From: a virus
Taxonomy: Duplodnaviria > Caudoviricetes
Length of the DNA stretch: 64,000 nt
Strand: one strand, 5' to 3'
IMG/VR virus record: IMGVR_UViG_3300000203_000003
Coordinates: 77,979-141,978 of that record
This document shows positions 28,057 through 57,328 of the stretch, one piece after another (the stretch's first letter is position 1; every line of letters begins with the position of its first letter). Below the pieces are notes generated by a model. The model was not told the DNA's origin. It did not search any database and saw only the letters and a list, made by a program, of their open reading frames with translations. The position numbers and the translations under genes are program-made.

Positions 28057-28135
28057 ATAAATAGTAGTGTAGTTCGCGGGAGTGGAATCCCCAACTACTC
28101 TAACGCTTTAGAGGAGCATCAGCATGACTATTTAT
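28057..28135 (+). promoter_or_regulatory. Conserved structured endonuclease leader, copy A
   Basis: ATAAATAGTAGT-GTAGTT-CGC-GGGA-GTGGAA-TCCC-C-AACTAC-TCTAAC-GCTT-TAGAG-GAGC-ATCAGC-ATG-ACTATTTAT; four more copies in window. Confidence 0.85.
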
Positions 28136-28846
28136 TACCTCATGGTTAAGACCCATAATATCACTGGGTTAAAATACCTATGTCAAACCAAACGAAAAGA
28201 TCCATTAAAATATTTGGGCTCAGGTTTACATTGGGGACGGCATCTTGCCATCCATGGTAAAGCAATCACAACCCTAATCCTCAAGGAATGTAGTTCAATT
28301 GAAGAAATAAAAGAATATGGATTATATTATAGTGAATTGTGGAATATAGTTGATAGCGATGAGTGGGCAAATCTAAAACCTGAGGATGGTCAGGGCTGGG
28401 GTGAAGGTGAACATCACCCGATGCGTGACCCAACGATTCGCGCAAAAATACAAGGTGACAACAATTACCAACGAAAACCGGATTATAGTTGCAGCCAAAC
28501 TACAATAGACAAGATATCAGGTCAAAATCATTACAAAAGTCGGTCGGGGTATATTCCTATTGAGGTAAGTCGGGCTACTAAGAGTAAAATGTCAGCGTCA
28601 CACTGGACAAAACAACCAAATGCAGGTGAAGTTAAATCCAAGATATCCGGTAAAAATAACTATCAATATAATCCTACCATCTATTGTTTCCATAATACTA
28701 TTAATGGAGAGATAATAAGGATGACGCGGTCTGAATTTAAAAATTATACAAATATGCCTAACAATCGGTTAGGAGCATTGATCAATAACAAAAAATATAA
28801 AGGGTGGAAGATATTAGATATCCCACCAAATGATGTTGACATATGA
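28124..28846 (+). CDS. Free-standing GIY-YIG-like endonuclease (MTIYY family)
   Basis: IYYLMVKTHNITGLKYLCQT..DP.KYLGSG..W..HL..HG, WANLKPEDG; C-terminal Y.F.N..GE HTH-like module. Confidence 0.8.
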   Translation: MTIYYLMVKTHNITGLKYLCQTKRKDPLKYLGSGLHWGRHLAIHGKAITTLILKECSSIEEIKEYGLYYSELWNIVDSDEWANLKPEDGQGWGEGEHHPMRDPTIRAKIQGDNNYQRKPDYSCSQTTIDKISGQNHYKSRSGYIPIEVSRATKSKMSASHWTKQPNAGEVKSKISGKNNYQYNPTIYCFHNTINGEIIRMTRSEFKNYTNMPNNRLGALINNKKYKGWKILDIPPNDVDI

Positions 28847-28864
28847 TATTGTTTCTGTTAAAAT
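28836..28864 (+). promoter_or_regulatory. Sigma70-type promoter overlapping the endonuclease 3' end
   Basis: TTGACA-17-TAAAAT with extended TG. Confidence 0.7.
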
Positions 28865-28888
28865 AAACTAACTTTTAAGGAAAATGAA

Positions 28889-29218
28889 ATGCAATGGTTA
28901 GACAAGTGGATCAGCAAAAAAGTTAAACAAGCATGGGACGAGGCGAATAAGCCGGCACGTGATGTTGAGGCAGAGGCATACAACAGTATGAAGATGTCAA
29001 CAATCGGTGGAGGACTAAAGAATACTATCAGCGGTTCCCCCAGGGCAATCGGAATGCAGTTCACGGTGTATCAGGCAAACGGCGGGCATGTACTGGAGTA
29101 TCAATATTACGATCCCAAAACAGACAGACACGCTAACAGCCTGCATCTTATCACTGTCGATCAAAACATGGGCGAAGTGATCGGTCACGCAATAACTCTT
29201 GAAATGTTGAAACGATGA
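28889..29218 (+). CDS. Hypothetical protein
   Basis: SD AAGGA; coupled to the clamp loader gene. Confidence 0.6.
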   Translation: MQWLDKWISKKVKQAWDEANKPARDVEAEAYNSMKMSTIGGGLKNTISGSPRAIGMQFTVYQANGGHVLEYQYYDPKTDRHANSLHLITVDQNMGEVIGHAITLEMLKR

Positions 29219-30147
29219 GTATGATTTCACAACTTTGGGTAGAGCGTTACCGACCGAAGGTCATTGCTGATTATGTTTTTGTCGATGAACGACTGAAACA
29301 ACAAGTAGAGGGTTGGGTTAAAGCAGGTAGCATCCCTCACTTACTATTGTCAGGTGATCCTGGCACAGGTAAGACTACACTGGCAAAAGTTCTGATCAAT
29401 GAACTGGGTGTGTCTGACTATGATGTGATGGAAATCAATGCGTCCAGAGAGCGCGGTATTGATATTGTTAAGACGAAGATCAATGGTTTCGCTCAAACTA
29501 TGCCTTTCGGTAAGTTCAAGATCATTCTACTTGACGAAGCAGATTACACAACGCCTGACTTTCAAGCTGCGTTACGATCTGACATGGAAGCGTATGCCGA
29601 TACAGTCAGGTTCATTCTGACATGTAACTACGAGGCAAAGATCATTCCGGCGCTGCGTGAAAGTCGCTGTCACAAGGTTCACATCGCCAAGCCAGATCGT
29701 GTTGAATTTACTGCACGGGCAGCAACAGTTCTTGTCACAGAAGGCGTCGAGTTTGACCTTGACACTCTTGACAGTTATATTCGTGTGACTTATCCCGATC
29801 TGCGTAAGACGCTGAATCAACTTCAAGTCAACAGCAGCACCGGTAAGTTGTTGCCACCGCAGGTGTCAGGTTCCAGTGAAAATGAACTGCTTATTGAAGC
29901 AACGACTTTGATCAAAGCAGGGAAGATTCTTGAAGGACGACAACAACTGATGCAGTATATTGCGCTGTATCCTACCCGGATCGAGGACACCTACAAGTGG
30001 ATGTACGAAAATCTTGATCTGTGGGGCAAGTCGAATGAAAAACGTGACGCCAGCATCATCATAATCAGAAATGGTCTGGCAACGCTGCCTCTGGTGGGCA
30101 TCCCTGAGATATCGCTGGCAGCTTCGCTGGTTGAACTTACTACTTAG
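29215..30147 (+). CDS. gp44: Clamp loader AAA+ subunit (gp44/RFC-small-like)
   Basis: LWVERYRP, GDPGTGKT, EINAS, LLDEAD, RFILTCNY, SRC, DLRK.LN.LQ. Confidence 0.92.
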   Translation: MSMISQLWVERYRPKVIADYVFVDERLKQQVEGWVKAGSIPHLLLSGDPGTGKTTLAKVLINELGVSDYDVMEINASRERGIDIVKTKINGFAQTMPFGKFKIILLDEADYTTPDFQAALRSDMEAYADTVRFILTCNYEAKIIPALRESRCHKVHIAKPDRVEFTARAATVLVTEGVEFDLDTLDSYIRVTYPDLRKTLNQLQVNSSTGKLLPPQVSGSSENELLIEATTLIKAGKILEGRQQLMQYIALYPTRIEDTYKWMYENLDLWGKSNEKRDASIIIIRNGLATLPLVGIPEISLAASLVELTT

Positions 30148-30155
30148 GAACAAAC

Positions 30156-30425
30156 ATGAGATACTTACTTATTACATTCGTCCGTAAACCGGGCGGTCAG
30201 ATTGACGAAATGGTCACTGTGTCGAAGCGAGTAAAGACTTCTGATCTGCAAACTTGTAATGTGATTATGGATTACGGCAAGAAGAAAGTCGATAAGTGCG
30301 TTATCGAAGGCAAGGTCCTGGAGCGAGACTGGGAAAATATGAATGGGTACTACAAAAAGATTTACCCTAAATTGATCGATCAGCTTGAGAAAGAAGCACC
30401 GATCACAACTAAAGCAAAGAAATAA
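30156..30425 (+). CDS. Hypothetical protein
   Basis: SD AGGA; ends at a terminator. Confidence 0.6.
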   Translation: MRYLLITFVRKPGGQIDEMVTVSKRVKTSDLQTCNVIMDYGKKKVDKCVIEGKVLERDWENMNGYYKKIYPKLIDQLEKEAPITTKAKK

Positions 30426-30426
30426 A

Positions 30427-30449
30427 AAACGGGGCCATGAGCCCCGTTT
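30427..30449. terminator. Bidirectional terminator between convergent genes
   Basis: AAACGGGGC-CATGA-GCCCCGTTT. Confidence 0.8.
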
Positions 30450-30452
30450 AGT

Positions 30453-31235
30453 TTATGAGTACAATCTAAGTACCTGTTCAATGATTCTGTGTCGCTGAAC
30501 ATCTTTAACTTCAAACTCACACGCAGTAATCCCTGCTACCGGCCGCTTATCTAATCTGTTAACTAAATCTAACAAACCATTATCTGCTTTCTTCTGGTCT
30601 GTCTGATCGGTATCACCTGTCAGGATAATCTTGGAGTTCTGTCCAATACGTGTCATCAACATCTTTAACTGTCCTGGTTTGGCATTCTGGCCTTCATCAA
30701 GAATGATGATAGAGTCTTTGAACGTGCGACCACGCATGAATCCAAGAGGGGAGAACTCAATGGTCTGTTCGGCCATCATCTCTGTAAGTTCTTTGACAGT
30801 GTAATACTCATGCAGAATATCAACCATTGGACGAACCCAAGGGGCAAGTTTTTCGTTCAGATCACCTGGCAAGAAACCGTGATCTTCATCTTCAACAGCA
30901 ACCGCAGGGCGTGTTAACACAATGCGTTTACACTCACCGGCGCGTAGTGCTTTGACTGCTGCAAGAATAGCAAGATACGTTTTACCGGTACCGGCTGGTC
31001 CAGATACGACTACGATATCTGTGTCTTGGTCAAGTAAAGCAATGATGTATTTTTCTTGGTTGAGAGACTTGGGGACGAGAACGACTGGCCTTTTGTTGAC
31101 TTTTGGCGCTTTTTGAGTTTGAGCAAAGTCTATTGTTTTGGAGTCGTTTAGATAAAATGATTTTTGGTTCTTTCTTTTGTCTTGTAAAAATGGGATATCC
31201 TGATCGCGTACAGCACTTGTGCGTTTTCTTGACAT
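30453..31235 (-). CDS. phoH: PhoH-like ATPase
   Basis: GPAGTGKTYLA, LTRPAV, GFLPGDL.EK, FMRGRTF, ILDEGQN, TGD.DQ.D, DVQRH. Confidence 0.93.
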   Translation of the reverse strand: MSRKRTSAVRDQDIPFLQDKRKNQKSFYLNDSKTIDFAQTQKAPKVNKRPVVLVPKSLNQEKYIIALLDQDTDIVVVSGPAGTGKTYLAILAAVKALRAGECKRIVLTRPAVAVEDEDHGFLPGDLNEKLAPWVRPMVDILHEYYTVKELTEMMAEQTIEFSPLGFMRGRTFKDSIIILDEGQNAKPGQLKMLMTRIGQNSKIILTGDTDQTDQKKADNGLLDLVNRLDKRPVAGITACEFEVKDVQRHRIIEQVLRLYS

Positions 31236-31346
31236 GTATAGATCCTTTAAGGAGTGTGAAATGAGAAGACCATCTTCTCAATAGTATTTAAGTTGTGTTC
31301 ATCCTTAAGATAGTGCTAGTTATTGCTTAATGCGGTTTACTAAATA

Positions 31347-32039
31347 TTAAGCTAGATGCATACTCCATCCGCTTACTGATTTGCGATTGCCTAAAACCAG
31401 TTCATTAATATTACCGGGGTGCAAATTATATGCTATTACCAGTGCTTTCTTAGTAGAATTAACTATCGTATTGGTCGCTGAGTGAAGGAATGAATATCTA
31501 GTAGCCGGGATGTCAGACAATCTCCATCCCTTTAAGAATTGTAACTTGCCACTAGTCAGTTCCCCGACTCCGCTCTTATACATACCGAATTCCCTACAAA
31601 ATTCCGACCGAACCATTCTGACATGTCGGTCAGTCTCATTGTGATAAAAATCATAGATGGTGTGGTCATAATTATACGCATTTTTACCTTTAATATGATT
31701 TTTTGCAATTATTTTGATATGCTCGTATGAGCGTGATGTTACTCTCCCGTTGTACCTGCTCATTCTACACATCGTCATAAATGCATAACACATTCTTGCC
31801 TTATGTTCACTGGTTGTTATCTTAGTAAGTAACCAATGGGCGATAAAATGTTCTCGTATGGTAAGTGCAACGGTGTGAGTACCGCCCATTGACTTAGGAA
31901 TAAAATGGTGCCGTTCAACATTTGTTTTAAGTCGCGCCCTTTGTTGAGCGTTAATAATAAGTTGCACATACCATGCGCTGTACTTGTTATTTAAGAATAC
32001 GTTTGTATTAAGGTGCTCGGCGAGTGAATAAATAGTCAT
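31347..32039 (-). CDS. Free-standing HNH endonuclease (MobE-like)
   Basis: ERHHFIPKSMGG..LTIREHFIAHWLL; two C-terminal HTH-like repeats ending KGW/SGW; likely start MTIYS at 32039. Confidence 0.8.
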   Translation of the reverse strand: MTIYSLAEHLNTNVFLNNKYSAWYVQLIINAQQRARLKTNVERHHFIPKSMGGTHTVALTIREHFIAHWLLTKITTSEHKARMCYAFMTMCRMSRYNGRVTSRSYEHIKIIAKNHIKGKNAYNYDHTIYDFYHNETDRHVRMVRSEFCREFGMYKSGVGELTSGKLQFLKGWRLSDIPATRYSFLHSATNTIVNSTKKALVIAYNLHPGNINELVLGNRKSVSGWSMHLA

Positions 32040-32106
32040 GCTGATGATCCTCCAGATCGTTAGAGAGGGCGGGAATCTCACCTCCGTGGCTCTCACTTTT
32101 ATTTAT
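32028..32106 (-). promoter_or_regulatory. Conserved structured endonuclease leader, copy C
   Basis: - strand: ATAAATAAAAGT-GAGAGC-CAC-GGAG-GTGAGA-TTCC-C-GCCCTC-TCTAAC-GATC-TGGAG-GATC-ATCAGC-ATG-ACTATTTAT. Confidence 0.85.
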
Positions 32107-32138
32107 GCCAAAACTACAAATAAAGATAAATACTTAAT

Positions 32139-32747
32139 ATGAAAACAGCCGACGAATTTTTCGATAACATTGACTACCCCAGCATCATTGACACTATCAA
32201 AGGTATCTATACCTCAGATGGATCTATGTCAACCCTACTCGACTTTGAGCGATGCTTGGACGAAGCCAATCTTTACGCATTTAAGAACTGGGAACTTGGC
32301 GAGTTGGTAGACGGACCGCGAGTGAAGAAATACACGGTGTCATGCGTATTCATGTGGCCGCACAAGCTGATGCCCGATCCACGCGGCGCCAAGAGATTAC
32401 TGTCTGTTGGGTGCAAGATCAAGTTCAAGAAAACAAAAATCAAAGTCCCGGTTCAAGTAGAAACACCCGATGATTATCTACCCGGCGGCCGATATCCGAA
32501 GTCAGTTATGAAACCAATCTGGTTGATTCTTATTCAGATCCCAACAGAGTTGATGGATGATGTTAAAGAAGGTTCTATTGATCTTGCTGATCAAACTATT
32601 GATCTGGAGGAACTTGACGATTCGTATGACGAGGATCTGGATCAAGATGACGGCACTGAGGACGAGGAGCCAGGTGGTCAGCCCGGTCCTGAAGATCAAG
32701 GTGCTCCGGGACAAGCAGGCGGAATGCCACCCCCACCACAGATGTAA
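32139..32747 (+). CDS. Hypothetical protein with acidic/Pro-rich tail
   Basis: GATAAATA 6 nt before ATG. Confidence 0.65.
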   Translation: MKTADEFFDNIDYPSIIDTIKGIYTSDGSMSTLLDFERCLDEANLYAFKNWELGELVDGPRVKKYTVSCVFMWPHKLMPDPRGAKRLLSVGCKIKFKKTKIKVPVQVETPDDYLPGGRYPKSVMKPIWLILIQIPTELMDDVKEGSIDLADQTIDLEELDDSYDEDLDQDDGTEDEEPGGQPGPEDQGAPGQAGGMPPPPQM

Positions 32748-32748
32748 T

Positions 32749-33309
32749 ATGAACAAAATACTATCAGAAGGTTTAGATTGGCATGACCTCGAAGGTCAGC
32801 TTGAAAAAATAGTCAGTGTTGATGACTATAGCGCACACATGGGCGAAGATTGCGATATCGTGACTCTGGCTTTCATCATCAGATCAGAACGAGCAGGCAA
32901 CGATCTTGTTGACTGGTTCGAGCGCGGATATGATTGGGTGCTTGATGCTCAAGTAAGCGAAGGTGAACTACGTCCCGGTCGTTATGTTGTGTTCGTTGAG
33001 CTAAGTCGCCGCACAACTGTTCCTGAAAGAATCATTGAGTTGCTTGCAGACATGGAAACACTTACTGATATTCCATTGAAAGACTGGACTATCAAAGTTG
33101 ACGATGAAGAATATCCCGCTGAAGAAGATGTGCTAAGTCAGGTCATCGTTCTTTCTCCGCATGAGTATCGTGAAGAAGAAGAAACCAACGACAACGAAAC
33201 TGAAGAAGGACTTAATGAAGTTCGCAAGGCGGCAGGCATTCCAGTTAAGCAGATTTATAATGCTGCTGATACTGAGATGAAAAACTACAAGGCGTTAGCA
33301 GGCCTGTAA
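32749..33309 (+). CDS. Acidic hypothetical protein (possible head protein)
   Basis: Start reassigned to MNKILSE-G; ends KALAGL like the 909-aa protein. Confidence 0.55.
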   Translation: MNKILSEGLDWHDLEGQLEKIVSVDDYSAHMGEDCDIVTLAFIIRSERAGNDLVDWFERGYDWVLDAQVSEGELRPGRYVVFVELSRRTTVPERIIELLADMETLTDIPLKDWTIKVDDEEYPAEEDVLSQVIVLSPHEYREEEETNDNETEEGLNEVRKAAGIPVKQIYNAADTEMKNYKALAGL

Positions 33310-33798
33310 ATGGCAACTATACTGGCAAGAAAAGTCCAGGACGAGATTCCAATTGCGACTGACGATGAGGCTGAAAGTCTACTTGTCGCAGATCCTACAG
33401 TAACCCAATTCTCGTCAAACTACGGTTCCAATCAAGGAACCTCTTTCGGTTCTACATATAACAACAACCAATCAAATAGTTCGACCCCAGTGTTAACTGG
33501 TGCTGCACCGTCGAACGCCGCATCAGGTGCTGACATTTTGGTAAAAGCAGACGAACACTGGATTAACAGACGCTGGCGCCCTGCAATGGGTTGGTTGTAT
33601 ATGGCAACTTGTCTGTTCGACTTCATCCTCTTTCCGATTCTATGGAGCATATTACAAGCACTGACAAAAGGATCGGTAACTATGCAATGGCAACCACTGA
33701 CCTTGCAAGGTGCCGGTCTGTATCACATCGCTATGGGCGCGGTGCTTGGCATCGCAGCATATGGCAGAACTCAAGAAAAGATTTCCGGATCCAATTGA
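33310..33798 (+). CDS. Holin-like membrane protein (3TM/GTA-holin type)
   Basis: WRPAMGW, hydrophobic segments, LG..AYGRT.EK. Confidence 0.65.
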   Translation: MATILARKVQDEIPIATDDEAESLLVADPTVTQFSSNYGSNQGTSFGSTYNNNQSNSSTPVLTGAAPSNAASGADILVKADEHWINRRWRPAMGWLYMATCLFDFILFPILWSILQALTKGSVTMQWQPLTLQGAGLYHIAMGAVLGIAAYGRTQEKISGSN

Positions 33799-33823
33799 CA
33801 TTTATTCAAATATAGTGTATAAT
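33795..33823 (+). promoter_or_regulatory. Perfect sigma70 consensus promoter
   Basis: TTGACA-17-TATAAT; ATG 5 nt downstream. Confidence 0.85.
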
Positions 33824-33828
33824 ACGCT

Positions 33829-34617: not shown

Positions 34618-34635
34618 ATATTTAAAAGGAAATAC

Positions 34636-36912: not shown

Positions 36913-37612
36913 GAGCAGAAATAAACTATGGTACGGTAAATACACTTACCGTGCCAAGTTTACTTTAGTTGGAATCAATCGCACATACGCCTGTAAGACT
37001 TTCCTTCAGTTTTTAAAGAAACTAGAACAAAATCTCAGCGATAAGCCAAACGCGCCTTGGGCATCGGAATGGCAAAGTAGACTTCAAAGAGAAATCAAAG
37101 AGGTTGAGTTAGATTCGATTGAGAACTATATCAACTGGCGCGCCAAGTTCACGGGGAAAGGTGGTCCTGCTCTGATTCGCTCAGAGAGTAATTCTGCCGC
37201 AGTGTTCAGTAATGATCTGGCTCTATTACAGACATTACAAAACATCGATCCTGATCTAATTATCATCTTTACCAGAGTTGATAACAATATCCCTGAGGGG
37301 CACAAGTATTACGCTAAAGAGCCACCTCACAAGTTTCGCGTATATTTACGATCAATGGATCTGAAAGAACTGCCGTCATTCAGACAAGACTTAAAAGAGT
37401 TTTTTGAGCGATACCTGAACACAAAAACTGTAGTTGTTCCAAGCAGGGCCCTAACTCAATGGTTAAGACAGACTACCAGTTCTTGGCGTATGCGATATTG
37501 CTACGAACACTTCTATATAGATTATGACAATCCAAGCACATATACGCTGATATCACTGATGTTTGGTGATATGCTCTCTGCAATGTATAAATTAGAAAAG
37601 CGCCCACAGTGA
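36902..37612 (+). CDS. Hypothetical protein
   Basis: TTG start overlapping the clpA end. Confidence 0.55.
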   Translation: MKVESRNKLWYGKYTYRAKFTLVGINRTYACKTFLQFLKKLEQNLSDKPNAPWASEWQSRLQREIKEVELDSIENYINWRAKFTGKGGPALIRSESNSAAVFSNDLALLQTLQNIDPDLIIIFTRVDNNIPEGHKYYAKEPPHKFRVYLRSMDLKELPSFRQDLKEFFERYLNTKTVVVPSRALTQWLRQTTSSWRMRYCYEHFYIDYDNPSTYTLISLMFGDMLSAMYKLEKRPQ

Positions 37613-37635
37613 TAAATACTTGAAGGAGTATTTAT
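37612..37635 (+). promoter_or_regulatory. Late promoter whose sequence pairs over the downstream SD (translation-blocking hairpin)
   Basis: ATAAATACT-TGAAGG-AGTATTTAT; SD AAGGAG lies inside the hairpin. Confidence 0.7.
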
Positions 37636-37639
37636 TACC

Positions 37640-41600: not shown

Positions 41601-42266
41601 ATGATTGCTTATTCTAAACTAAATCCACCAACTGGCTTCTATGTATATATGTGGCTTCGGGAAGACCAGAGTCCATATTATGTAGGAAAAGGTATGACTC
41701 GCAGAGCTTGGCGATCAGGATCTCCAATTGATCAAACCCGCATTGTTATAGTTGAGCATATGCTCACTGAGGAGGAAGCGTTTAGTAAGGAACGACAACT
41801 CATTAAAGAGTACGGTCGTAAAGACCTCGGAACAGGCATATTAAGAAATATGACTGATGGCGGAGAAGGAGCATCAGGGCAGGTACAGACAATTGATACT
41901 ATTGAAAAGCGACATAAAACACGCAAAGAAAATGGAAATTGGGGCAACGCATCACTGATAGGTAGTAAACAAGCGGCGGAAGAAATATCCAGAAAAAGCG
42001 AAAGACAACGCGGTCAAAAACATTCTCCTGAGCGTAATGCGAAGCGCAGTGCAGCATTGAAGGGTAGAAAGTTATCCCCTGAACATATAGCCAAGCGAAC
42101 TGCTACGGTAACTGGCAGAAAACAACGACCTGAAGTTATTGAAAACCGATCAGCGCAACTAAGAGGGCGAAAGCAAGAGGTGATAACTTGTCCACATTGT
42201 GGCAAATCCGGCGGGTGCGTAGTTATGAAGAGGCACCACTTTGACCATTGTAAATCTATCCGATAA
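41601..42266 (+). CDS. Free-standing GIY-YIG-like endonuclease with NUMOD3 repeats and CPHC finger
   Basis: FYVYMWLR..PYYVGKG, ILRNMTDGGEG, G.K.SPE repeats, CPHCGK..HHFDHC. Confidence 0.85.
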   Translation: MIAYSKLNPPTGFYVYMWLREDQSPYYVGKGMTRRAWRSGSPIDQTRIVIVEHMLTEEEAFSKERQLIKEYGRKDLGTGILRNMTDGGEGASGQVQTIDTIEKRHKTRKENGNWGNASLIGSKQAAEEISRKSERQRGQKHSPERNAKRSAALKGRKLSPEHIAKRTATVTGRKQRPEVIENRSAQLRGRKQEVITCPHCGKSGGCVVMKRHHFDHCKSIR

Positions 42267-42273
42267 ATACTTG

Positions 42274-43533
42274 ATGGATCTCAAAGAACTCGACTCATTT
42301 AAACTGGCAGACGCAGTGACTTTTCACACGGAACTGAACCCTAAACTTTTCAGAGGTCGTCACCTACATCCTGAAGTTGAAAAGCAACTGAAAATCATCG
42401 CTGAAGATTTCATTGAAGAAATGGGTCTGTCTGATATTAACGTGGTTGATATCACAATCTCCGGTTCAAACGCAGCATACAGTTATACGAAACACTCTGA
42501 TCTAGATTTACATCTACTTGTGGATATGTCGAAGTTAAATAATGACGCAATGTATCTGGAGTTGTTTGATGCGAAAAAGACAATCTATAACGACACACAC
42601 GACATAACAATCAGACACATTCCAGTTGAGTTGTACATTCAGGATTCAAATCATCAGGTTACAAGCGTCGGTGAGTATAGTATTCTGCGTGATGAGTGGA
42701 TCAGAATCCCAAGTAAGCGTAGAGCAAACTTCGATCAAACAGCAACGGCTGCGAAGTATGAAAAACTGTCGAAGTTGATAGACAGAGCGTTGAAAACATC
42801 TGACCTGAATAAGATAAATCATCTGATCAAAACAATACATCGCTACAGACAAGCAGGGCTTGACCAAGGCGGCGAGTTCGGACCAGAGAATCTTGCATAC
42901 AAAGCAATACGAACAACTGGCCAGATCACTAAGCTGTATGCTCTGCGAGATAAACTTCATTCCAGAAGATTGAGTATCGAGGGACAGTATTCTCAATTGG
43001 AAGAATCAACGTCTACTCTTCCTAAAGTATTGTATCATGTGACTCCGGCGAAGAATCTGCCTGGCATAATGAGTAAAGGGTTGATACCGAAAGTAGGAAG
43101 TAGATCAGCACAAATATACAACGAACAATCTGGTATATTCTGTTTCCCCGATAAGGTATCAGTCGAAGATGCGCTGATGAATTGGTTAGGTGATCAGTTC
43201 GATGAGAATGAAACTCTGGCACTACTGGCTATAGATTCGACAGGACTACAAGGTAAATATACTCCTGGTGCAGAATATGAAGTTGTGATTACTTCTCCGG
43301 TCCCAGTCAGTAATATAAGTGTCGCATCAAAAGATGTAGACGCGATGTTTGAATCAGCATCAGGTTACATCCCAAGCAACGCTCAAAAGAATGATCCAAG
43401 ATACAAAACAGCGTTAACTGTAGATATCAAGCCGGATACGATCCAAGTAAATGCTAAAAAATTAGGGTTAGGTGGAATAAAAAGATCAGGAATTCCTCAG
43501 TTTGCCCGGGCCGATGGCAAAACAAAAAGATAA
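42274..43533 (+). CDS. Pol-beta-superfamily nucleotidyltransferase + ART-like domain fusion
   Basis: ISGSNA.Y.YT..SDLDLH, VELY; after QLEES linker LYHVT..I...GL.P..GIF; tail after MFES. Confidence 0.7.
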   Translation: MDLKELDSFKLADAVTFHTELNPKLFRGRHLHPEVEKQLKIIAEDFIEEMGLSDINVVDITISGSNAAYSYTKHSDLDLHLLVDMSKLNNDAMYLELFDAKKTIYNDTHDITIRHIPVELYIQDSNHQVTSVGEYSILRDEWIRIPSKRRANFDQTATAAKYEKLSKLIDRALKTSDLNKINHLIKTIHRYRQAGLDQGGEFGPENLAYKAIRTTGQITKLYALRDKLHSRRLSIEGQYSQLEESTSTLPKVLYHVTPAKNLPGIMSKGLIPKVGSRSAQIYNEQSGIFCFPDKVSVEDALMNWLGDQFDENETLALLAIDSTGLQGKYTPGAEYEVVITSPVPVSNISVASKDVDAMFESASGYIPSNAQKNDPRYKTALTVDIKPDTIQVNAKKLGLGGIKRSGIPQFARADGKTKR

Positions 43534-43607
43534 ATAGTAGTGTAGTTCGCGGAAGTGGAATTCCCAACTACTCTAATGCCCAAGGAGCAATCAGCATGAC
43601 TATTTAT
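43530..43607 (+). promoter_or_regulatory. Conserved structured endonuclease leader, copy B
   Basis: ATAAATAGTAGT-GTAGTT-CGC-GGAA-GTGGAA-TTCC-C-AACTAC-TCTAAT-GCCCAAGGAGC-AATCAGC-ATG-ACTATTTAT. Confidence 0.85.
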
Positions 43608-44267
43608 TATCTTATGGTTAAGACCCATAATATTACCGGTTTAAAATATCTTTGTCAGACAAAACGCAAAGACCCACACAAATATCTCGGATCCGGTAAA
43701 GATTGGTTGATCCATCTCATGCGTCACGGAAAAGAACATTCAACTGAAATTATTATTGCCTGTCAGAGCAGACAGGAACTGTACTATTGGGGAATGTATT
43801 ATAGTAGCCTATGGAGGGTAGTAACCGGCCAGGATGATTTCGGCAATAAAATATGGGCTAACCGGATTAAAGAAAACGGCGGGGGCGAAGGTATGACTTC
43901 GGCGCTAGCCACTGAAATTCAAAATAGGCCGGCTACAAAACTTAAAAATTCAGATTCCCACAAAATGTTATGGAAAAATAAAGAATATATTAAAAAGCAA
44001 ATAGATGCCCACCAATCCATAGATTATCGCACTCGGAATAGCGTACTTCAAAAAGAAGTACAAAATAGACCCGAAGTTAAAGAAAAGTTGAGTGGCAAAA
44101 ATAGTTACAAATACGATCATACAATTTACACCTTCATCCACACTACAGGGATTATAGAAACGTTAACTCAATACGACCTAATTAGGAAATATGATCTATG
44201 TCAGCCAAATTTAAATTCAGTTGTCCGTAATAAAAGACGAATACACAAAGGCTGGACGATAGCATAA
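43596..44267 (+). CDS. Free-standing GIY-YIG-like endonuclease (MTIYY family)
   Basis: First ~33 aa nearly identical to the 28124 protein; divergent C-terminus ending HKGW. Confidence 0.8.
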   Translation: MTIYYLMVKTHNITGLKYLCQTKRKDPHKYLGSGKDWLIHLMRHGKEHSTEIIIACQSRQELYYWGMYYSSLWRVVTGQDDFGNKIWANRIKENGGGEGMTSALATEIQNRPATKLKNSDSHKMLWKNKEYIKKQIDAHQSIDYRTRNSVLQKEVQNRPEVKEKLSGKNSYKYDHTIYTFIHTTGIIETLTQYDLIRKYDLCQPNLNSVVRNKRRIHKGWTIA

Positions 44268-48275: not shown

Positions 48276-48276
48276 T

Positions 48277-50318: not shown

Positions 50319-50346
50319 ACTTTATTCTCCCTAGCATAAATACACT

Positions 50347-50922
50347 ATGCGCGCCAATCAATTTATCACAGAATCAGCTTTAAATGACCTAGAGCGTCAA
50401 CTACCAAGCCACCTTACTCACGGTCACAGTGCCCTTGACAATCTTATGCACAAAATTGCCCGTAGACATAATCTTACAGACGATGCACTACATGATATGT
50501 TCAAACGAAAGCACCTTAAGTCGCCACATGATCTGATCAAAGACAAACTACACGAAGAAGGTGATGATAATTCAGACGAACAAACCAGAGACTTCATCAA
50601 GTGGGCTATAGAAGTGCTGCATATTCAACAACCATATCCCAAGATCACTCTAAGCAAAGACTCAGACGCAGCCAGAGAAGGTCACCACACTGGATTGAAC
50701 ACTCCTGCTGCCAACACGATCTGGATTTATGTCGGGAACAGAAACCTTATTGACATTCTCCGTACTGTTTTCCACGAACTCACCCATACCAGACAATATC
50801 AGATGGGCATGGTCAAAGACGGCGACAGTTATCCCGGCAGCCCCATCGAAGTACTGGCTGATGCCATGGCCGGAAAGTATATCAAGATATACGGCAAGGA
50901 ACATCCGGAGATATTCCAATGA
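50347..50922 (+). CDS. Zincin-like metallopeptidase-domain protein
   Basis: ILRTVFHELTH..Q..E..A (HExxH); N-term MRANQFITE; internal LHEE linker. Confidence 0.7.
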   Translation: MRANQFITESALNDLERQLPSHLTHGHSALDNLMHKIARRHNLTDDALHDMFKRKHLKSPHDLIKDKLHEEGDDNSDEQTRDFIKWAIEVLHIQQPYPKITLSKDSDAAREGHHTGLNTPAANTIWIYVGNRNLIDILRTVFHELTHTRQYQMGMVKDGDSYPGSPIEVLADAMAGKYIKIYGKEHPEIFQ

Positions 50923-51770
50923 GAGCAAATGAATTTATCAATGAGGGGATTGAACGACTACGACCTGACGATTACGAAGGTGGTAAGGGCTATTTAGGTG
51001 GCACAGACTCCGGCAAGAAAGTATCTGCCTTACCAGGTGGCAGCGGTCTTTTGTACAGTATAGGGAGTGGTAACTGGGGAAGCACCGCTATTAGAATTTG
51101 GGATCCGAACGGAGAAGACTTTATTCAGGCTAAACGAAGAGGTGCAGAATCAAAGCCAGTTATTCAACGCCGTCGATTCCATGGTAGAGTACGCGACTGG
51201 GAACGAGAACAACAAAAACTAAAAGCACCGGGTCAATTAATCGGTGAACTTACTGTGGATAAGGCAAAATCTTTTCCCCTGAAGAATGCTGTTAAAGTTG
51301 GAACAATCACAGTTGACGAGGACTATCGTGGCATAGGTCTGGCCAAAGCATTATACGGCATTGTGCTGACTATATTGAAGTTACCATTACTAGCCGGGAC
51401 AAGTCAAACACCTGGCGGCCGCAAGAACTGGGTTAGCATATCAGGAATCCCGGGCGTGGATATGAAAGGGTATGTGTCTGTCCATGATGATAATTTAACT
51501 ACCATAAAAATAGATCCCTACGCCCGGAGAGGCGATAAACAGTATGATGAAAAACGTAATAAAAAGGCTGATCAGACGATTGACATCATCATGGGACAAT
51601 TAGGCGGACAGTATATTGGTAAGGGCGGGTATGGTTCCTTATACTTTGCATTTGATGTGCAGCCCAATGACACCGGGAAAGAATTAGAAGCCGCTGTAAA
51701 AACTAAGTTAAGCACTGTATATAGTGGTGAATATAACTCCGGACTATACGCCGTCTGGACAGGAAAATGA
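50919..51770 (+). CDS. GNAT acetyltransferase-like protein
   Basis: VDEDYRGIGLAKALY..QTPGGRKNW; N-term MRANEFINE. Confidence 0.75.
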   Translation: MRANEFINEGIERLRPDDYEGGKGYLGGTDSGKKVSALPGGSGLLYSIGSGNWGSTAIRIWDPNGEDFIQAKRRGAESKPVIQRRRFHGRVRDWEREQQKLKAPGQLIGELTVDKAKSFPLKNAVKVGTITVDEDYRGIGLAKALYGIVLTILKLPLLAGTSQTPGGRKNWVSISGIPGVDMKGYVSVHDDNLTTIKIDPYARRGDKQYDEKRNKKADQTIDIIMGQLGGQYIGKGGYGSLYFAFDVQPNDTGKELEAAVKTKLSTVYSGEYNSGLYAVWTGK

Positions 51771-51846
51771 GATTATACGAGCGCAAACTACAGACCGGAC
51801 AGACTATCCGCGAAACTGTATTCGGTAAACCTAAGCTAAAATAAAG

Positions 51847-52494
51847 TTATCTCAGCATTCCAGGTGCAAACCCCTCGGGGCAATCAAAGGTTAAAATAGA
51901 AACTTCCCCGTTATTAAACCAGTGTTTACCAAATGACGGATTATTAGCCCCGGTCATATTTATTCCATGCTCAACTCGCTTCTTTCCTGTATGGGCGGCA
52001 GCTACCTTAGCATTACGATCTGTAGAATATGTATATCCCTTTCTACTTTTGCTAATAGCCGCTCTGCGTTCCAAGGAATGTGGTCCCCTCTTTACACCCT
52101 TCAATGCCCGACTTTGTTTAAGACGCGCCTCTGATGATGGAATGGAGCCGAGGCGTTTTTCTCTGATCTTATCCTTAGTGTCTTGGGAATGTTTAAAACC
52201 AGAAATTCCCTCACCGCCCGCTGTTTTATTGCGAAGTATACCGGTGTTTTCATTTTTGCGACCGTACCAACGAATATAAAATCTTTCTAAAGCAAGCGCG
52301 CCGACCTCTGATAAGTTGGCCTCTAAAATAATTATTCTGGAATGATCTTTGGGTGTTCTGAATACTTCCGTTTTTGCGTGTTTCCATGCTCGCTTGTCCT
52401 GTCCCTTACCAATGTAATACGGGGTGTTATCATCACGCAAATATGCGTATGTATAAAATCCATCGGGTGGATTTTTGTATGAATAAATAGTCAT
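51847..52494 (-). CDS. Free-standing GIY-YIG-like endonuclease with NUMOD3
   Basis: FYTYAYLR..PYYIGKG, ILRNKTAGGEG, GFKHSQDTK, GKHWFNNG. Confidence 0.85.
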   Translation of the reverse strand: MTIYSYKNPPDGFYTYAYLRDDNTPYYIGKGQDKRAWKHAKTEVFRTPKDHSRIIILEANLSEVGALALERFYIRWYGRKNENTGILRNKTAGGEGISGFKHSQDTKDKIREKRLGSIPSSEARLKQSRALKGVKRGPHSLERRAAISKSRKGYTYSTDRNAKVAAAHTGKKRVEHGINMTGANNPSFGKHWFNNGEVSILTFDCPEGFAPGMLR

Positions 52495-52563
52495 GCTGAT
52501 TGCTCCTCAAAAGCGTTAGAGCGGTTAGGGTCTGATCACCAGCGAACCGCACTATCTATTTAT
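52483..52563 (-). promoter_or_regulatory. Conserved structured endonuclease leader, copy D
   Basis: - strand: ATAAATAGATAGT-GCGGTT-CGC-TGGT-GATCAG-ACCC-T-AACCGC-TCTAAC-GCTT-TTGAG-GAGC-AATCAGC-ATG-ACTATTTAT. Confidence 0.85.
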
Positions 52564-52573
52564 ACCAAACTAC

Positions 52574-52602
52574 TTGCTTTTATGATTTATTCGTTATATA
52601 AT
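52574..52602 (+). promoter_or_regulatory. Sigma70-type promoter for the polymerase operon
   Basis: TTGCTT-17-TATAAT. Confidence 0.6.
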
Positions 52603-52623
52603 GAATCTTTAAAGGAATTTATC

Positions 52624-52881
52624 ATGGATACAATTTTTAGTGGCGACCAAAAATTAAAGTTAAACGCGCTCTTTAACGAGTGTCTTCCGGTCATGACCGA
52701 AATCGAAACTCTCAGCGGGGGATTAACTGATACTATCAAAGCAGTAGGTGAGGAGTTAGAAATCAAACCCAGTATATTAAAACGGGCAATGAAAATCGCT
52801 CATAAAGCCTCACTTGGTCAGACTAATGTTGACCATGACGCGCTAAATACCGTACTGGAAGCAGTCGGGAAAACTCTCTAA
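52624..52881 (+). CDS. Small helical dsDNA-binding protein (T4 DsbA/GapR-like)
   Basis: EIE.L...L.DTIK....EL.I.P..L.RA.K pattern; start ATG 52624 with SD AAGGA. Confidence 0.5.
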   Translation: MDTIFSGDQKLKLNALFNECLPVMTEIETLSGGLTDTIKAVGEELEIKPSILKRAMKIAHKASLGQTNVDHDALNTVLEAVGKTL

Positions 52882-54572
52882 TGTCATTTGTTGACGCAAT
52901 CCACAATAAAGACTCTGAGCAGATCGTTGTTGTAGAACGGGACAAGGACGGTAAGCGTCAGTATAAAGAGTATCAGGCAAACTATACATTTTACTACGCG
53001 GATCCCAAAGGCAAGTATCGCGGGCTGAGTGCGGGCACCGCACTCCCGGTCAGTCGATTCTCCTGCCGAAAGCGAACAGAGTTTGAAAAAGAACGACGAA
53101 TAAACTCCGGCAAGAAAATGTTTGAGAGTGATATTGGCGTTGTGGGCAGATGCCTTAGTGAGAACTATCGCAACATTGATGCTCCCAAACTTCACACTTG
53201 CTTCTTCGACATTGAAACTGACTTCGATCCTGACAAAGGCTTCTCCCCTGCATCAGAAGCGATGAACAAGATCACTGCTATCTCAATGTATCTTGACTGG
53301 CTTGATCGTCTTGTCACTCTTGTCATTGCTCCTAAGCACATGACGCCGGAGACAGCACAAGAAATCTGCGATTCGTTCGAGGACACCATGCTGTTCACCA
53401 GTGAGAAGGACATGTTCGATGTGTTCTTTCAGTTGATTGACGATGCCGATGTGTTAACTGGTTGGAACTCTGAAGGATACGACATACCCTACATGGTTAA
53501 TCGTGTCACCCGAGTTATGAGCAAGAACGACACACGAAAGTTCTGTTTACTAGGTCAGCTACCTAAGGCTCGCACATACGAACGCTTCGGCAAAGAAGAA
53601 ACAACTTACGACTTGATCGGTCGTATTCATCTTGACTATCTTCAACTCTACAAAAAGTACAACTACGAGAGTCGCCACAGCTACAAACTAGATGCTATTG
53701 GCGAGTTAGAAGTTCACGAAAACAAGACTTCATACGAGGGTACTCTGGATCAGTTGTATAACAAAGACTTCAAAAAGTTCATTGAATACAACAGACAAGA
53801 TACGAAGTTGGTATATAAGATCCATGCTAAAGTTCACTTTCTTGAACTGGCAAATCAACTGGCACACGAAAACACCGTGTTGATTCCGGTTGTCATGGGT
53901 ACAGTGGCAATGGTTGAAATGGCGATCATGAACGAAGCTCATGATCATGGTCTGGTAGTTCCTGATAAAAAACGAAGGGTTGAAAATGATGATATCCAAC
54001 AACAAGCGGCAGGTGCCTATGTTGCTACTCCCAAAAAGGGAATTCACGAATGGGTCGGAGCAGTTGACATTAACTCGCTCTATCCCTCAACGATCCGGGC
54101 GCTTAACATGGCGCCAGAAACCATCATTGCTCAGGTCAGACAAACACTGACAGATCAGTTCATGCACGAAAAGGGCATGAGACTGGCACGTGAGAAGAAA
54201 CGCCACAAAGATGGCGACGATGATGTGACGGGAAGTGTCCTCTGGGAAGGTTTGTTCGGGTCGTTAGAATACACCTCGATCATGAACCAAGAACGCGGCA
54301 CTCTGCTGACGATTGACTACGAAGATGGACGCACTGAGGAGAAAAGTGCTGCTGAAATCTGGAAGATGATCTTTGACAGTCACAATCCATGGATGATCAG
54401 TGCGAACGGCACGATCTTCTCGTATGCTAATCAAGGTATCATCCCGGGACTACTTGGTAAGTGGTACAGTGATCGTAAGGCTCAACAACGGAAAATGAAA
54501 CTCTGTTCTGAACTTGCCGCGGGGATAGATGTAGACGATGAAATGGTAGCTTTACTTAATCATAGTCCGTAG
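52881..54572 (+). CDS. gp43: Family B DNA polymerase, N-terminal part (exonuclease, motif A, first fingers helix)
   Basis: FFDIET, GWNS..YD.PY, YN..D, VDINSLYPS, GIIPGLL.KWY..RK. Confidence 0.92.
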   Translation: MSFVDAIHNKDSEQIVVVERDKDGKRQYKEYQANYTFYYADPKGKYRGLSAGTALPVSRFSCRKRTEFEKERRINSGKKMFESDIGVVGRCLSENYRNIDAPKLHTCFFDIETDFDPDKGFSPASEAMNKITAISMYLDWLDRLVTLVIAPKHMTPETAQEICDSFEDTMLFTSEKDMFDVFFQLIDDADVLTGWNSEGYDIPYMVNRVTRVMSKNDTRKFCLLGQLPKARTYERFGKEETTYDLIGRIHLDYLQLYKKYNYESRHSYKLDAIGELEVHENKTSYEGTLDQLYNKDFKKFIEYNRQDTKLVYKIHAKVHFLELANQLAHENTVLIPVVMGTVAMVEMAIMNEAHDHGLVVPDKKRRVENDDIQQQAAGAYVATPKKGIHEWVGAVDINSLYPSTIRALNMAPETIIAQVRQTLTDQFMHEKGMRLAREKKRHKDGDDDVTGSVLWEGLFGSLEYTSIMNQERGTLLTIDYEDGRTEEKSAAEIWKMIFDSHNPWMISANGTIFSYANQGIIPGLLGKWYSDRKAQQRKMKLCSELAAGIDVDDEMVALLNHSP

Positions 54573-55250
54573 TTGAGAAAGGGATGACACGAAGATGAAG
54601 TTTTTTACAAGATCCCGTTTTCTGTAAATCCTTTCTAAATACCATTCTTTTCCTATACTGCTAACTTCTACATAAGTATCCAAACTTTTAATATATGCAT
54701 CCGCTGTTCTTCTATCATCAACCGAATATTCTTTTTGTAATATGATATCCGATAATCCAAACTTACCAATAAGATATTCACAGCACGTTGCCTCCAAGGT
54801 TGATGAATATTTACGGCCATCATGTTCGACTGGTTTTGACCACGTTCCTTCTCTTATTTTATGTGGGGTGCAAACCGGACAACGTTTGCGGTGTTCGTCA
54901 GTGCGTAATATTACCTCGAGGGAAGACTTTACTATATGACCACAATGGTGTTTAAAATGCAGCGGTAAATATGAGTTTTTGTATTCGTTATCGTCAACTA
55001 TTTCCCATTGACCGGGCAATAAACTCGTCTTTACCAAGTCAATCGGTTTGCGAACTCTCAACTGGAAACAATGACGACAACCTATTCCATTCAAGACTTG
55101 CCTGGGTTGCGTATTCCAAATATTGTTACAGGTATGACACATATGATTTATTTTAAAGGTGATACCATTATAAGGTTCCAACGCGGTGTAACCGAGTTTT
55201 TTTACGGCAGCAGAGTAAGTGCTTTCATTGTATTTTTTATTTAACCCCAT
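54552..55250 (-). CDS. Zn-ribbon + PD-(D/E)XK-like putative endonuclease interrupting polB
   Basis: CHTC, CRHC, HHCGH, CPVC; YSSTLE..ADAY..YVEV; SD AGGAGA. Confidence 0.7.
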   Translation of the reverse strand: MGLNKKYNESTYSAAVKKLGYTALEPYNGITFKINHMCHTCNNIWNTQPRQVLNGIGCRHCFQLRVRKPIDLVKTSLLPGQWEIVDDNEYKNSYLPLHFKHHCGHIVKSSLEVILRTDEHRKRCPVCTPHKIREGTWSKPVEHDGRKYSSTLEATCCEYLIGKFGLSDIILQKEYSVDDRRTADAYIKSLDTYVEVSSIGKEWYLERIYRKRDLVKNFIFVSSLSQLRTMIK

Positions 55251-55259
55251 ATTATCTCC

Positions 55260-55275
55260 TATAAATACTATTTAT
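55260..55275. promoter_or_regulatory. Palindromic double late promoter
   Basis: T-ATAAATA-C-TATTTAT between divergent genes. Confidence 0.65.
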
Positions 55276-55299
55276 CATTGACAGAAAGATTATGCAAAA

Positions 55300-56547
55300 A
55301 TGGATGTAGAACATATTAAACACTTGGTAAAAACCAGAAATGTATCGGAATTGCGACAATATATGAAGTTGCATAACCTTGTGATTAAAAATGGGAAGAT
55401 AGTCGCTTCACAGGAGAAAATAAAGGAATTTACAGATTATTGGGACAAGCGACAACTGGTCAGAAAGATTTTGTTGAACTCAGCTTACGGTGCCCTGTTG
55501 AATGAACACTGTCGTTTCTACGATAAGCGTATCGGTCAATCGGTTACTCTATCAGGCAGGCAGATTGTGAAGCACATGAGCGCACACATCAATGAAATCG
55601 TCACCGGAGAGTATGACTACACCGGGCAAGCAATCGTATACGGTGACACTGACTCTTGTTATTTCTCTGCATGGCCTCTGATGAAGGATGAAGTTGCTGC
55701 TAGCACAATGACTTGGAGCAAAGACGTTGCTATTCAGTTGTACGACAATATCGCTGATCAGATCAATGACGGGTTCGCTGGCTTTATGGAGAAGTCGTTT
55801 CATGCTCCACGCAAGAACGGCGAAATCATCAAAGCAGGTCGAGAACTGGTTGCTGATCGGTCGTTGTTTATCACTAAGAAGCGGTATGCTCTGAACATCT
55901 ACGACAAAGAAGGCAAGCGTCTGGATCAGTATGACATGGACAAGGCTAAGAAGAACGGTGTCAGATTCGGCATTGGTCAAATCAAGGCTATGGGTCTTGA
56001 TCTGAAACGCGCTGACACACCTAAGTATGTTCAAGAGTTCCTGATGCGAGTGTTGGAGATGGTCCTTGATGGTAAAGATCGTCAGGATATCATTGAGGTT
56101 ATCAAGACGTTCAAAACTGAATTGGGCAACCAAGACGGATGGACAAAGGGTTCGCCTAAGTCAGTTAACAAGCTGACGATGTATGGTGAAGCGGAAGAGA
56201 AAAGTCGAACAGGCAGGGCAAACATGCCTGGTCACGTTCGGGCTGCTATCAACTGGAACTGGCTGCGTCGAGTCCATAACGACAACTACTCAATGAAGAT
56301 CATGGATGGCATGAAGATTGTGGTATGTAAGCTGAAAAACAACCCATTGGGTTACACCAGCATTGCATACCCAGTTGATGAAATGAGATTGCCAGAATGG
56401 TTCAAAGAACTTCCGTTCGACAATCTATTAATGGAAAAGACGTTAGTTGATGAAAAGATCGACAACTTACTCGGTGTTATGAACTGGGACTTACGTTCCA
56501 ATACAGACACCAACTCTACAGTTGATTCTCTATTCACCTTCGGTTAA
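55300..56547 (+). CDS. gp43: Family B DNA polymerase, C-terminal part (motifs B and C, thumb)
   Basis: QLVRKILLNSAYG, YGDTDS, KKRY, KAMGLDLKR.DTP. Confidence 0.92.
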   Translation: MDVEHIKHLVKTRNVSELRQYMKLHNLVIKNGKIVASQEKIKEFTDYWDKRQLVRKILLNSAYGALLNEHCRFYDKRIGQSVTLSGRQIVKHMSAHINEIVTGEYDYTGQAIVYGDTDSCYFSAWPLMKDEVAASTMTWSKDVAIQLYDNIADQINDGFAGFMEKSFHAPRKNGEIIKAGRELVADRSLFITKKRYALNIYDKEGKRLDQYDMDKAKKNGVRFGIGQIKAMGLDLKRADTPKYVQEFLMRVLEMVLDGKDRQDIIEVIKTFKTELGNQDGWTKGSPKSVNKLTMYGEAEEKSRTGRANMPGHVRAAINWNWLRRVHNDNYSMKIMDGMKIVVCKLKNNPLGYTSIAYPVDEMRLPEWFKELPFDNLLMEKTLVDEKIDNLLGVMNWDLRSNTDTNSTVDSLFTFG

Positions 56548-57259
56548 ACTTACACTTATCAAAGTGCCATTGTTTCATTGCCCCTCCTGCTCCTACTTTG
56601 GAGCAATGGGGACAAGTCACTTCAGCCATTTTTATTCCGGCCATCTTTTTGCTTATGTTTAGACGGGCCTCCTCGGTGTGCTTTCTCCCTGTATTTTTGG
56701 CACTAATCTTCTCCTTAGTCTCGATGGAGTGAGTTTTTCCGTTAAACGGGCCTGTACCAAAAAACTTGTTATTGGGCCCTCGATGTAAATCACAGAAGGC
56801 ATCCGTGTGTTTCTTGCCGGCGTTTTTAAGTCCTATCTTTTCCTTGGTAATGCCAGACATTATGGTACCAGTATGTGAATAGCTCATTTTACGCTTAGTT
56901 AGATCAGAATGTGTCCGTCCTTTACCTTTGCGTGAAATTTCCGCTCGTCCTTTAGGACCACAATCACCACCTTCCCCGGCTTCAGGTTTTAGGTTGGCCC
57001 AAGTCTTTTTGCCCAGGACATCACAGGCATCCACTACATTCCATAATTCGCTGTAATACAACCCGCGATCTTTGATTTCTGTTTTAGATTGGCATTCATG
57101 TAATATTTCCGTCGTGATTTCTTTTCCATGTTTTTTGAGATGTGTTTTCCAATACTCACCGGAACCGAGGTATTTATATGGGTCTGCTTTTCCTGTGTAG
57201 CCGAGATATTTAAGACCTGTTATTTTATGGGTCTTAACATAGAGATAATAAATAGTCAT
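56534..57259 (-). CDS. Free-standing GIY-YIG-like endonuclease (MTIYY family) with NUMOD3 and CPHC finger
   Basis: IYYLYVKTH.ITGLKYLGYT, YLGSG, WANLKPE, GKTHSIETK, CPHC..WHFDKC. Confidence 0.85.
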   Translation of the reverse strand: MTIYYLYVKTHKITGLKYLGYTGKADPYKYLGSGEYWKTHLKKHGKEITTEILHECQSKTEIKDRGLYYSELWNVVDACDVLGKKTWANLKPEAGEGGDCGPKGRAEISRKGKGRTHSDLTKRKMSYSHTGTIMSGITKEKIGLKNAGKKHTDAFCDLHRGPNNKFFGTGPFNGKTHSIETKEKISAKNTGRKHTEEARLNISKKMAGIKMAEVTCPHCSKVGAGGAMKQWHFDKCKFNRR

Positions 57260-57328
57260 GCTGATTGCTCCTTTGTAGCGTTAGAGAGGGCAGGAATTCG
57301 TTGTTCCGTGGCTCTCACTTTTATTTAT
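57248..57328 (-). promoter_or_regulatory. Conserved structured endonuclease leader, copy E
   Basis: - strand: ATAAATAAAAGT-GAGAGC-CAC-GGAA-CAACGAA-TTCC-T-GCCCTC-TCTAAC-GCT-ACAAAGG-AGC-AATCAGC-ATG-ACTATTTAT. Confidence 0.85.

Follow-up and report, generated by a model that had tools for sequence, protein, structure and literature searches.

In large phages, homing endonucleases make up the main class of selfish element, and the tolerance of dozens of them within one genome is only partly understood; the controls known for their genes are gene-specific mRNA hairpins and autorepression. Here, we analysed a repeated cassette of about 80 bp that spans the start of five nuclease genes in a 64,000-nt stretch of DNA from an uncultured freshwater jumbo phage (the window), namely the final 64 kb of the 141,978-bp IMG/VR virus record IMGVR_UViG_3300000203_000003, whose estimated completeness is 41%. 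An earlier note on this DNA had described five copies of a structured leader, and all five were confirmed in position and in layout, which runs from a box through P1, a 3-nt bulge, P2, the second strand of P1, a conserved linker and P3 over the Shine–Dalgarno sequence (SD) to the start codon and an inverted box. The box upstream of the gene is referred to as the outer box and the one inside the gene as the inner box, and the strand opposite the nuclease gene as the antisense strand. The features are as follows; the antisense RNAs and the promoter roles of the boxes are predicted from sequence.

Cassette A, 28057..28135, antisense on the minus strand, given from box to box (R2 match, 101 bits)
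Outer box of cassette A, 28057-28063, plus strand, predicted to drive nuclease gene A
Inner box of cassette A, 28129-28135, read on the minus strand, candidate promoter box
P1 of cassette A, 28069-28074 with 28093-28098, mRNA coordinates
P2 of cassette A, 28078-28081 with 28088-28091, mRNA coordinates
P3′ of cassette A, 28100-28107 with 28115-28122, mRNA coordinates
Predicted antisense RNA of cassette A, ~28124 down to ~28058, minus strand
Nuclease gene A, 28124..28846, plus strand, 240 amino acids (aa), GIY-YIG-like family 1
Cassette B, 32028..32106, antisense on the plus strand, inner box 32028-32034 read on the plus strand
Outer box of cassette B, 32100-32106, minus strand, predicted to drive nuclease gene B
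Predicted antisense RNA of cassette B, ~32039 to ~32105, plus strand
Nuclease gene B, 31347..32039, minus strand, 230 aa from the ATG at 32039, HNH-type homing endonuclease (phrog_655)
Putative promoter box of the plus-strand gene after cassette B, ~32126-32132
Cassette C, 43530..43607, antisense on the minus strand, outer box 43530-43536 (plus strand), inner box 43601-43607 (read on the minus strand)
Predicted antisense RNA of cassette C, ~43596 down to ~43531, minus strand
Nuclease gene C, 43596..44267, plus strand, 223 aa, GIY-YIG-like family 1
Cassette D, 52483..52563, antisense on the plus strand, inner box 52483-52489 (read on the plus strand), outer box 52557-52563 (minus strand)
Predicted antisense RNA of cassette D, ~52494 to ~52562, plus strand
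Nuclease gene D, 51847..52494, minus strand, 215 aa, GIY-YIG-like family 2 with a NUMOD3 motif
Cassette E, 57248..57328, antisense on the plus strand, inner box 57248-57254 (read on the plus strand), outer box 57322-57328 (minus strand)
Predicted antisense RNA of cassette E, ~57259 to ~57327, plus strand
Nuclease gene E, 56534..57259, minus strand, 241 aa, GIY-YIG-like family 1 with NUMOD3 motifs

The stems had been reported to covary, and this held both within the record and in a larger set of copies. With the helices drawn on the mRNA, 94.5% of the cells were paired in 11 copies of the record and nine pairs changed on both sides, and the covariation score was reached by none of 500 shuffles. 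Among 110 distinct copies from IMG/VR, from which all of the following strand, pairing and wobble statistics were taken, the same helices gave 347 cells with a double change against 78 expected. Cells paired only as a wobble numbered 201 on the antisense strand versus 13 on the mRNA strand, the respective counts being 176 and 3 in P3′, 16 and 0 in P1′, and 9 and 10 in P2′. Folded on the antisense strand, 98.1% of the cells were paired (99.8% in P1′) and 15 of the 18 pairs changed on both sides; none of 500 shuffles matched the paired percentage, the number of double-change cells or the covariation score, and control structures in which the partners were slid by one to three columns were paired in only 27–42% of cells.

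The antisense structure includes P3′, an 8-bp helix that forms on this strand only and pairs two conserved 'linker' blocks, namely the linker after P1 and the spacer between the SD and the AUG. One G·U pair of P3′ was invariant (110/110), and two neighbouring pairs covaried (AU/GU/UA/GC and UG/UA/CG/AU/GC). On the mRNA strand, the positions of this extension are A·C mismatches in most copies, leaving only a 3-bp P3 with support. The P1/P2 core contained zero G·U pairs on the mRNA strand and had A·C and C·A mismatches at many positions in several stem variants, all of which become G·U pairs when the complementary strand is read. The single mismatch in P1 and the unpaired linkers pointed out previously are therefore real on the mRNA strand, as A·C, but not on the other strand, where G·U pairs are formed. 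In addition, the antisense fold was the more stable one in 91% of the 108 copies used for folding energies (mean 4.2 kcal/mol; Wilcoxon p 4e-17). Based on the wobble asymmetry, the antisense-only helix and these energies, we assigned the fold to the antisense strand: the conserved fold sits on the strand opposite the nuclease gene, and the previous view of a fold selected as an mRNA leader was abandoned.

Each cassette carries two convergent copies of the box ATAAATA, about 66 bp apart. In the whole record, 39 of the 75 occurrences of this box lie 0–70 nt upstream of a gene start on the same strand, tail genes being among those preceded, compared with a background of 4% and with 0–18% for composition-matched words that do not overlap the box. 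These frequencies indicate that the box behaves as a putative promoter motif in this genome. The late promoter of T4-type phages is given as TATAAATA or NATAAATA (PMC2984593), and the box at the 5′ end of the cassette matches this type of motif, in agreement with the link to late promoters suggested before. The inverted repeats at the two ends had also been regarded as a possible mobile-element end. However, the terminal 7-base boxes showed no covariation in either the 11 or the 110 copies, and hence gave no support for a box-to-box helix; they are better read as convergent promoter boxes than as a helix or a mobile-element end.

Codons 2–4 contain the inner box, which is read on the opposite strand and directed back across the cassette. 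In copies picked without reference to either box, it stood 4–7 nt, mostly 5 nt, from the first antisense helix while the ATG moved, and its bases were read as MTIY, MYL, MIFI or MLF depending on the frame. The full inner 7-mer was present in 81 of the 110 copies, and the 6-base core in nearly all others. The inner box thus appears to be conserved at the nucleotide level, independent of the reading frame. Since it is fixed to the RNA while the frame shifts, the shared MTIY start would be a by-product of a nucleotide signal. What lies in the 5′ coding region is a candidate opposite-strand promoter that converges with the promoter of the gene.

Apart from the cassettes, the box stands exactly 4 nt in front of the ATG in nine genes of the record, including those at window 10481-10494, 42263-42276 and 50336-50349, and a gap of 5 nt occurs once (window 5738-5752). 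Because the box is so close to the ATG that an SD has no room, these genes suggest the presence of leaderless late mRNAs in this phage. If the first transcribed base is the fifth after the box, each of the two cassette RNAs would begin at the foot of a hairpin. A further convergent pair of boxes, 10 nt apart with an SD-like AAGGAG, is located at window 37612-37635, without a nuclease gene or hairpins between them.

The cassette probably specifies a cis-antisense RNA of about 65 nt that is transcribed from a promoter of its own, folds into two hairpins, ends in a U-rich tail and covers the ribosome-binding site (RBS) and the start codon of the nuclease gene. The outer box would start the nuclease mRNA and the inner box the ~65-nt transcript on the opposite strand, which would fold into a 5′ hairpin, P3′ (8 bp), and a bulged 3′ hairpin, P1′/P2′, followed by the U-rich tail. 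The predicted RNA is fully complementary to the 5′ untranslated region (UTR), SD and AUG of the nuclease mRNA; in the 5′ hairpin, the bases complementary to the SD fall where stem and loop meet. The tail, complementary to the region of the outer box, has a mean of 6.6 U in the 10 nt after the 3′ hairpin, and the energy of this hairpin averages about −10 kcal/mol; hairpin and tail together may well act as an intrinsic terminator. The antisense RNA would then block translation of the nuclease message, trigger its decay, or both, the converging polymerases might interfere with each other, and a potentially genome-damaging nuclease would be held at a low level.

Several points weigh against this antisense reading. 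Most of the helices are plain Watson–Crick and can also form in the mRNA, in which they may have an additional role, and in P2′ the pair that closes the loop is not biased to either strand. The stem of the 3′ hairpin is bulged, two or three non-U bases precede the U run, and a simple terminator scan did not call it. Both promoters belong to one class, so that the sense and antisense RNAs would be made simultaneously; the purpose of repression is then less obvious than with RNAs that differ in timing or stability. Finally, the antisense transcript, its start and stop points and its repressive effect are predictions from comparative sequence.

All nuclease genes of the phage and of co-infecting relatives share the same initiation region, and the cassette RNAs could for this reason form a shared trans-acting network that senses the total copy number and damps all homing endonucleases jointly. 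Such a network might include the genes of co-infecting relatives and even blunt the nucleases of a competing phage, and inhibition among many copies would explain why the pairing region is near-invariant while the hairpins drift. However, non-cognate copies in this genome can pair in trans over short runs only (median of 8 contiguous nt), which makes the network an unlikely, minor possibility.

The closest alternative to a cis-antisense RNA is a leader acting on the sense strand, as a 5′ stabiliser of the mRNA, a mask of the RBS or a protein-binding operator, in which box-to-box pairing silences read-through transcripts as in I-TevI. P1, P2 and the 3-bp P3 do covary and can form on the mRNA, the mRNA start predicted at the foot of P1 from the box-N4-ATG spacing would produce a 5′-terminal hairpin, and RBS-masking hairpins are used by endonuclease genes of T-even phages (PMC2988022). 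Nevertheless, a fold selected on the mRNA does not agree with nearly zero G·U on that strand against some 200 cells that wobble only on the other, with two conserved linker blocks that remain unpartnered there, or with a sense fold that is the weaker one in 91% of copies, and the 7-bp A-U helix between the boxes never covaries. Moreover, in the I-TevI scheme, to which the cassette had been likened, the promoter is inside the masking hairpin. Every covarying helix of the cassette lies downstream of the box, and hence the choice of promoter could not remove the mask. Taken together, a sense-strand leader is improbable.

The genes behind the cassettes comprise, as proposed in the earlier note, one HNH nuclease (B) and two GIY-YIG-like subfamilies. 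The family of gene D gave a weak GIY-YIG match in PDB (E 0.002). Genes A, C and E form one family, the largest among the downstream open reading frames (ORFs), for which Pfam gave no match and a PDB sequence search with the family profile found nothing. For the structural model of this family (predicted local distance difference test, pLDDT, 83.6), the best PDB fold matches were to the I-TevI catalytic domain (prob 0.96–1.0, template-modelling (TM) score 0.49–0.63, E-value only 0.025; prob 1.0 and TM 0.54–0.62 for the N-terminal domain), suggesting that A, C and E have a GIY-YIG catalytic fold. When 121 downstream ORFs of at least 60 aa were clustered by N-terminal domain, 15 clusters were obtained, and all representatives scanned were of homing-endonuclease types (GIY-YIG, HNH, HNH_3, NUMOD3-bearing and PHROG homing-endonuclease families). 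The cassette stands upstream of at least ten N-terminal nuclease families, and the idea of a portable, modular regulatory element that is independent of the nuclease family was thus borne out more strongly than it had been put. Among the copies examined, the cassette is tied exclusively to nuclease genes, and it overlaps the SD and AUG of the nuclease gene in all of them.

The whole 142-kb record contains 12 cassettes, of which 11 were found first and the twelfth later. The 18-base block at the start codon is identical in five copies and occurs exactly five times in the window, compared with 0.08 expected from shuffles. A scan of IMG/VR with a 16-base block returned at least 114 stretches; judged by a simple two-motif screen, about 100 of the 116 occurrences of this block belonged to full cassettes, and a covariance model recognised all but a handful of them. 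Applied to 100 of these IMG/VR loci, the model, of the kind suggested in the earlier note, yielded 125 copies, often several per contig. A second IMG/VR scan, keyed on one common P1/P2 variant only, returned at least 116 stretches and added at least about 80 new loci, and the total in uncultured IMG/VR phages is well above 200. Four further jumbo records (259–349 kb) carry 1–13 cassettes each. Among 50,697 GenBank phage records, megablast of cassette A with its gene start returned nothing; with two cassette copies as queries, blastn against cultured phages gave chance matches only (E 0.8–3). A cultured carrier of the cassette is not known. Carriers among metagenome-assembled genomes were only four short contigs in 185,579 species genomes, and these gave no indication of the host. 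The DNA runs containing the phage were freshwater in every case, RNA runs containing it were not listed, and the nearest isolates by tail sheath are the jumbo phages Atu_ph07, Phosso and PA5oct (~45% identity). Rfam gave no match at the gathering score in the whole window, and at E up to 1 gave, for three loci, only a spurious 18-bit match outside the cassette, in accordance with the view that no named family applies. The predicted cassette RNA, which is strongly supported by comparative evidence, would represent a new phage RNA family with a principle of action that is already known.

Cassettes are not found on every nuclease gene of this phage, as indicated by a nuclease-like gene at 61908-62690 (region 61865-62690) that has a plain start of box, SD and ATG, without hairpins or an inner box. 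An HNH gene on the opposite strand (54552-55250), also without a cassette, divides the DNA polymerase gene into two ORFs (52881-54572 and 55300-56547); two back-to-back boxes, 1 nt apart (55261-55275), lie there, one facing the HNH gene and the other the downstream polymerase fragment. The twelfth cassette (G000:C1:36000-36898, outside the window) heads an HNH gene that runs into an in-frame stop past the HH..P motif; this gene is probably decaying, though its cassette is intact. Between cassette E and the plus-strand gene at 57431, a near-consensus sigma70-type promoter (TTGACT, 17 nt, TATAAT) is present at window 57359-57387, which would place cassette E at the border between early and late transcription. 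A single 3565-aa ORF fills window 11062-21759, downstream of the tail genes.

In the whole record, 8 of the 12 cassette-bearing nuclease genes are on the minus strand, compared with about 14% of all called genes, indicating that the cassette is inserted preferentially against the main direction of transcription. In such cases the antisense strand is the main transcribed strand, and the cassette could instead be an insulation module, in which the inner box and the hairpin with its U-tract restart or stop transcription of the flanking genes after insertion and the nuclease itself is unregulated. The cassette-less HNH gene in the split polymerase, with its box aimed at the downstream fragment, would fit such a role, and in T4, promoters for neighbouring genes are often located on inserted endonuclease genes (PMC2988022). 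However, the structure is unchanged in the four copies co-oriented with their neighbours, where the inner box points into the upstream gene, and a terminator directly after the promoter would defeat the restart. The genes that follow cassettes B and E are preceded by a box of their own and by a sigma70-like promoter, respectively, and the covarying P3′ helix would be left without a role. Insulation is therefore quite improbable as the function of the cassette.

Contigs from four freshwater DNA runs break at the cassette repeats between 43000 and 58000, and no empty-site joints were seen in them; the cassette borders carry loose ends, the shared 80 bp being branch points between loci in metagenome assemblies. 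An element acting at the DNA level, as a single-stranded bottom-strand hairpin or a protein-bound inverted repeat for recombination, replication or cassette exchange (attC- or PeSL-like), would agree with this branching, with the tolerance of G·T in single-stranded DNA hairpins and with the module shuffling mediated by PeSL motifs in T4-like phages (PMC4122927), but it is very improbable, given that the frame-independent promoter box at fixed spacing and the U-rich tail are features of a transcription unit, that the cassette always overlaps the SD and AUG of the nuclease gene, and that no recombinase is associated with it. Two other candidates were rejected: a tiny ORF on the antisense strand arising from the palindromic CATG, of which frame and length vary between copies through a 1-nt indel, and integron attC-like and K-turn readings of the bulged hairpin, for which the defining motifs are absent.

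If the cis-antisense reading is correct, one portable antisense-RNA cassette would be a general control module for at least ten nuclease families at hundreds of loci in uncultured freshwater phages, and a control module would travel together with the catalytic and DNA-binding modules of the nucleases. It would also add to the phage RNAs a new, abundant and strongly covarying family that is absent from Rfam. The cassette would provide a natural example of convergent late promoters and of a promoter embedded in a coding sequence, where it constrains the first codons, and could serve as a compact part for the synthetic control of toxic genes.

Finally, we compared the cassette with known systems. 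In the type I toxin–antitoxin systems SymR/SymE and Sok/hok, a short, structured cis-antisense RNA overlaps the 5′ end of a harmful gene; its promoter is within the first codons, and the SD and AUG are covered. Such systems are chromosomal or plasmid addiction or stress modules, whereas the cassette shows no evidence of differential RNA stability or post-segregational killing. PeSL elements consist of an early sigma70-type promoter and a terminator in one orientation between ORFs of T4-like phages (PMC2839356, PMC4122927). They resemble the cassette as small repeated composites of promoter and stem-loop that lie beside variable genes and are potential recombination points, but they occur without any link to nucleases and lie clear of start codons. 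The cassette, in contrast, has boxes of late type that converge over the start codon, and does not show the same-orientation arrangement of early promoter and terminator between ORFs that defines PeSL.

For I-TevI, I-TevII, I-TevIII, segB and Aeh1 mobE, an mRNA hairpin contains a late promoter, and late transcripts escape the mask (PMC2988022). Like the cassette-bearing genes, these encode homing endonucleases of T4-type phages, and each has a late promoter of its own as well as an RNA structure around the RBS that limits expression. However, these masks are on the mRNA strand and particular in sequence to each gene, whereas the fold of the cassette belongs to one conserved family, is found on the other strand and lies entirely downstream of the promoter. 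A stable mRNA hairpin sequestering the SD and AUG as in I-TevI was not found in the cassette, where only the 3-bp P3 is supported, and neither was a late promoter inside a 5′ arm, for which only the non-covarying box-to-box pairing would fit. An antisense RNA seen experimentally opposite a homing endonuclease gene is CfrI of cyanophage S-PM2, as cited in PMC2984593, and it is alike in belonging to a T4-like phage that uses NATAAATA late promoters. As described in that citation, CfrI is about 225 nt long, spans the nuclease gene and psbA at a single locus and is not portable, and no shared structure is reported there.

The closest working analogue of the cassette would be RNA-OUT/RNA-IN of IS10/Tn10. 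RNA-OUT is a 69-nt antisense RNA with its promoter inside the 5′ end of the transposase gene; it pairs with the initiation region and acts in trans, so that repression rises with copy number (PMC5006887). A conserved and stable antisense structure, as in an RNA-OUT-type mechanism, is also predicted for the cassette. The two differ in that no relationship in sequence or in Rfam is present, in that the cassette has two hairpins and phage late-type promoters against the one long stem of RNA-OUT, and in the extent of the overlap, which is the whole 5′ UTR (~60 nt) in the cassette and 35 nt in RNA-OUT. RNA-OUT serves one transposase, while the cassette is common to many unrelated nuclease families. 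In both cases, however, the enzyme gene of a mobile element appears to be placed under an antisense RNA from a convergent promoter within the 5′ end of the gene.

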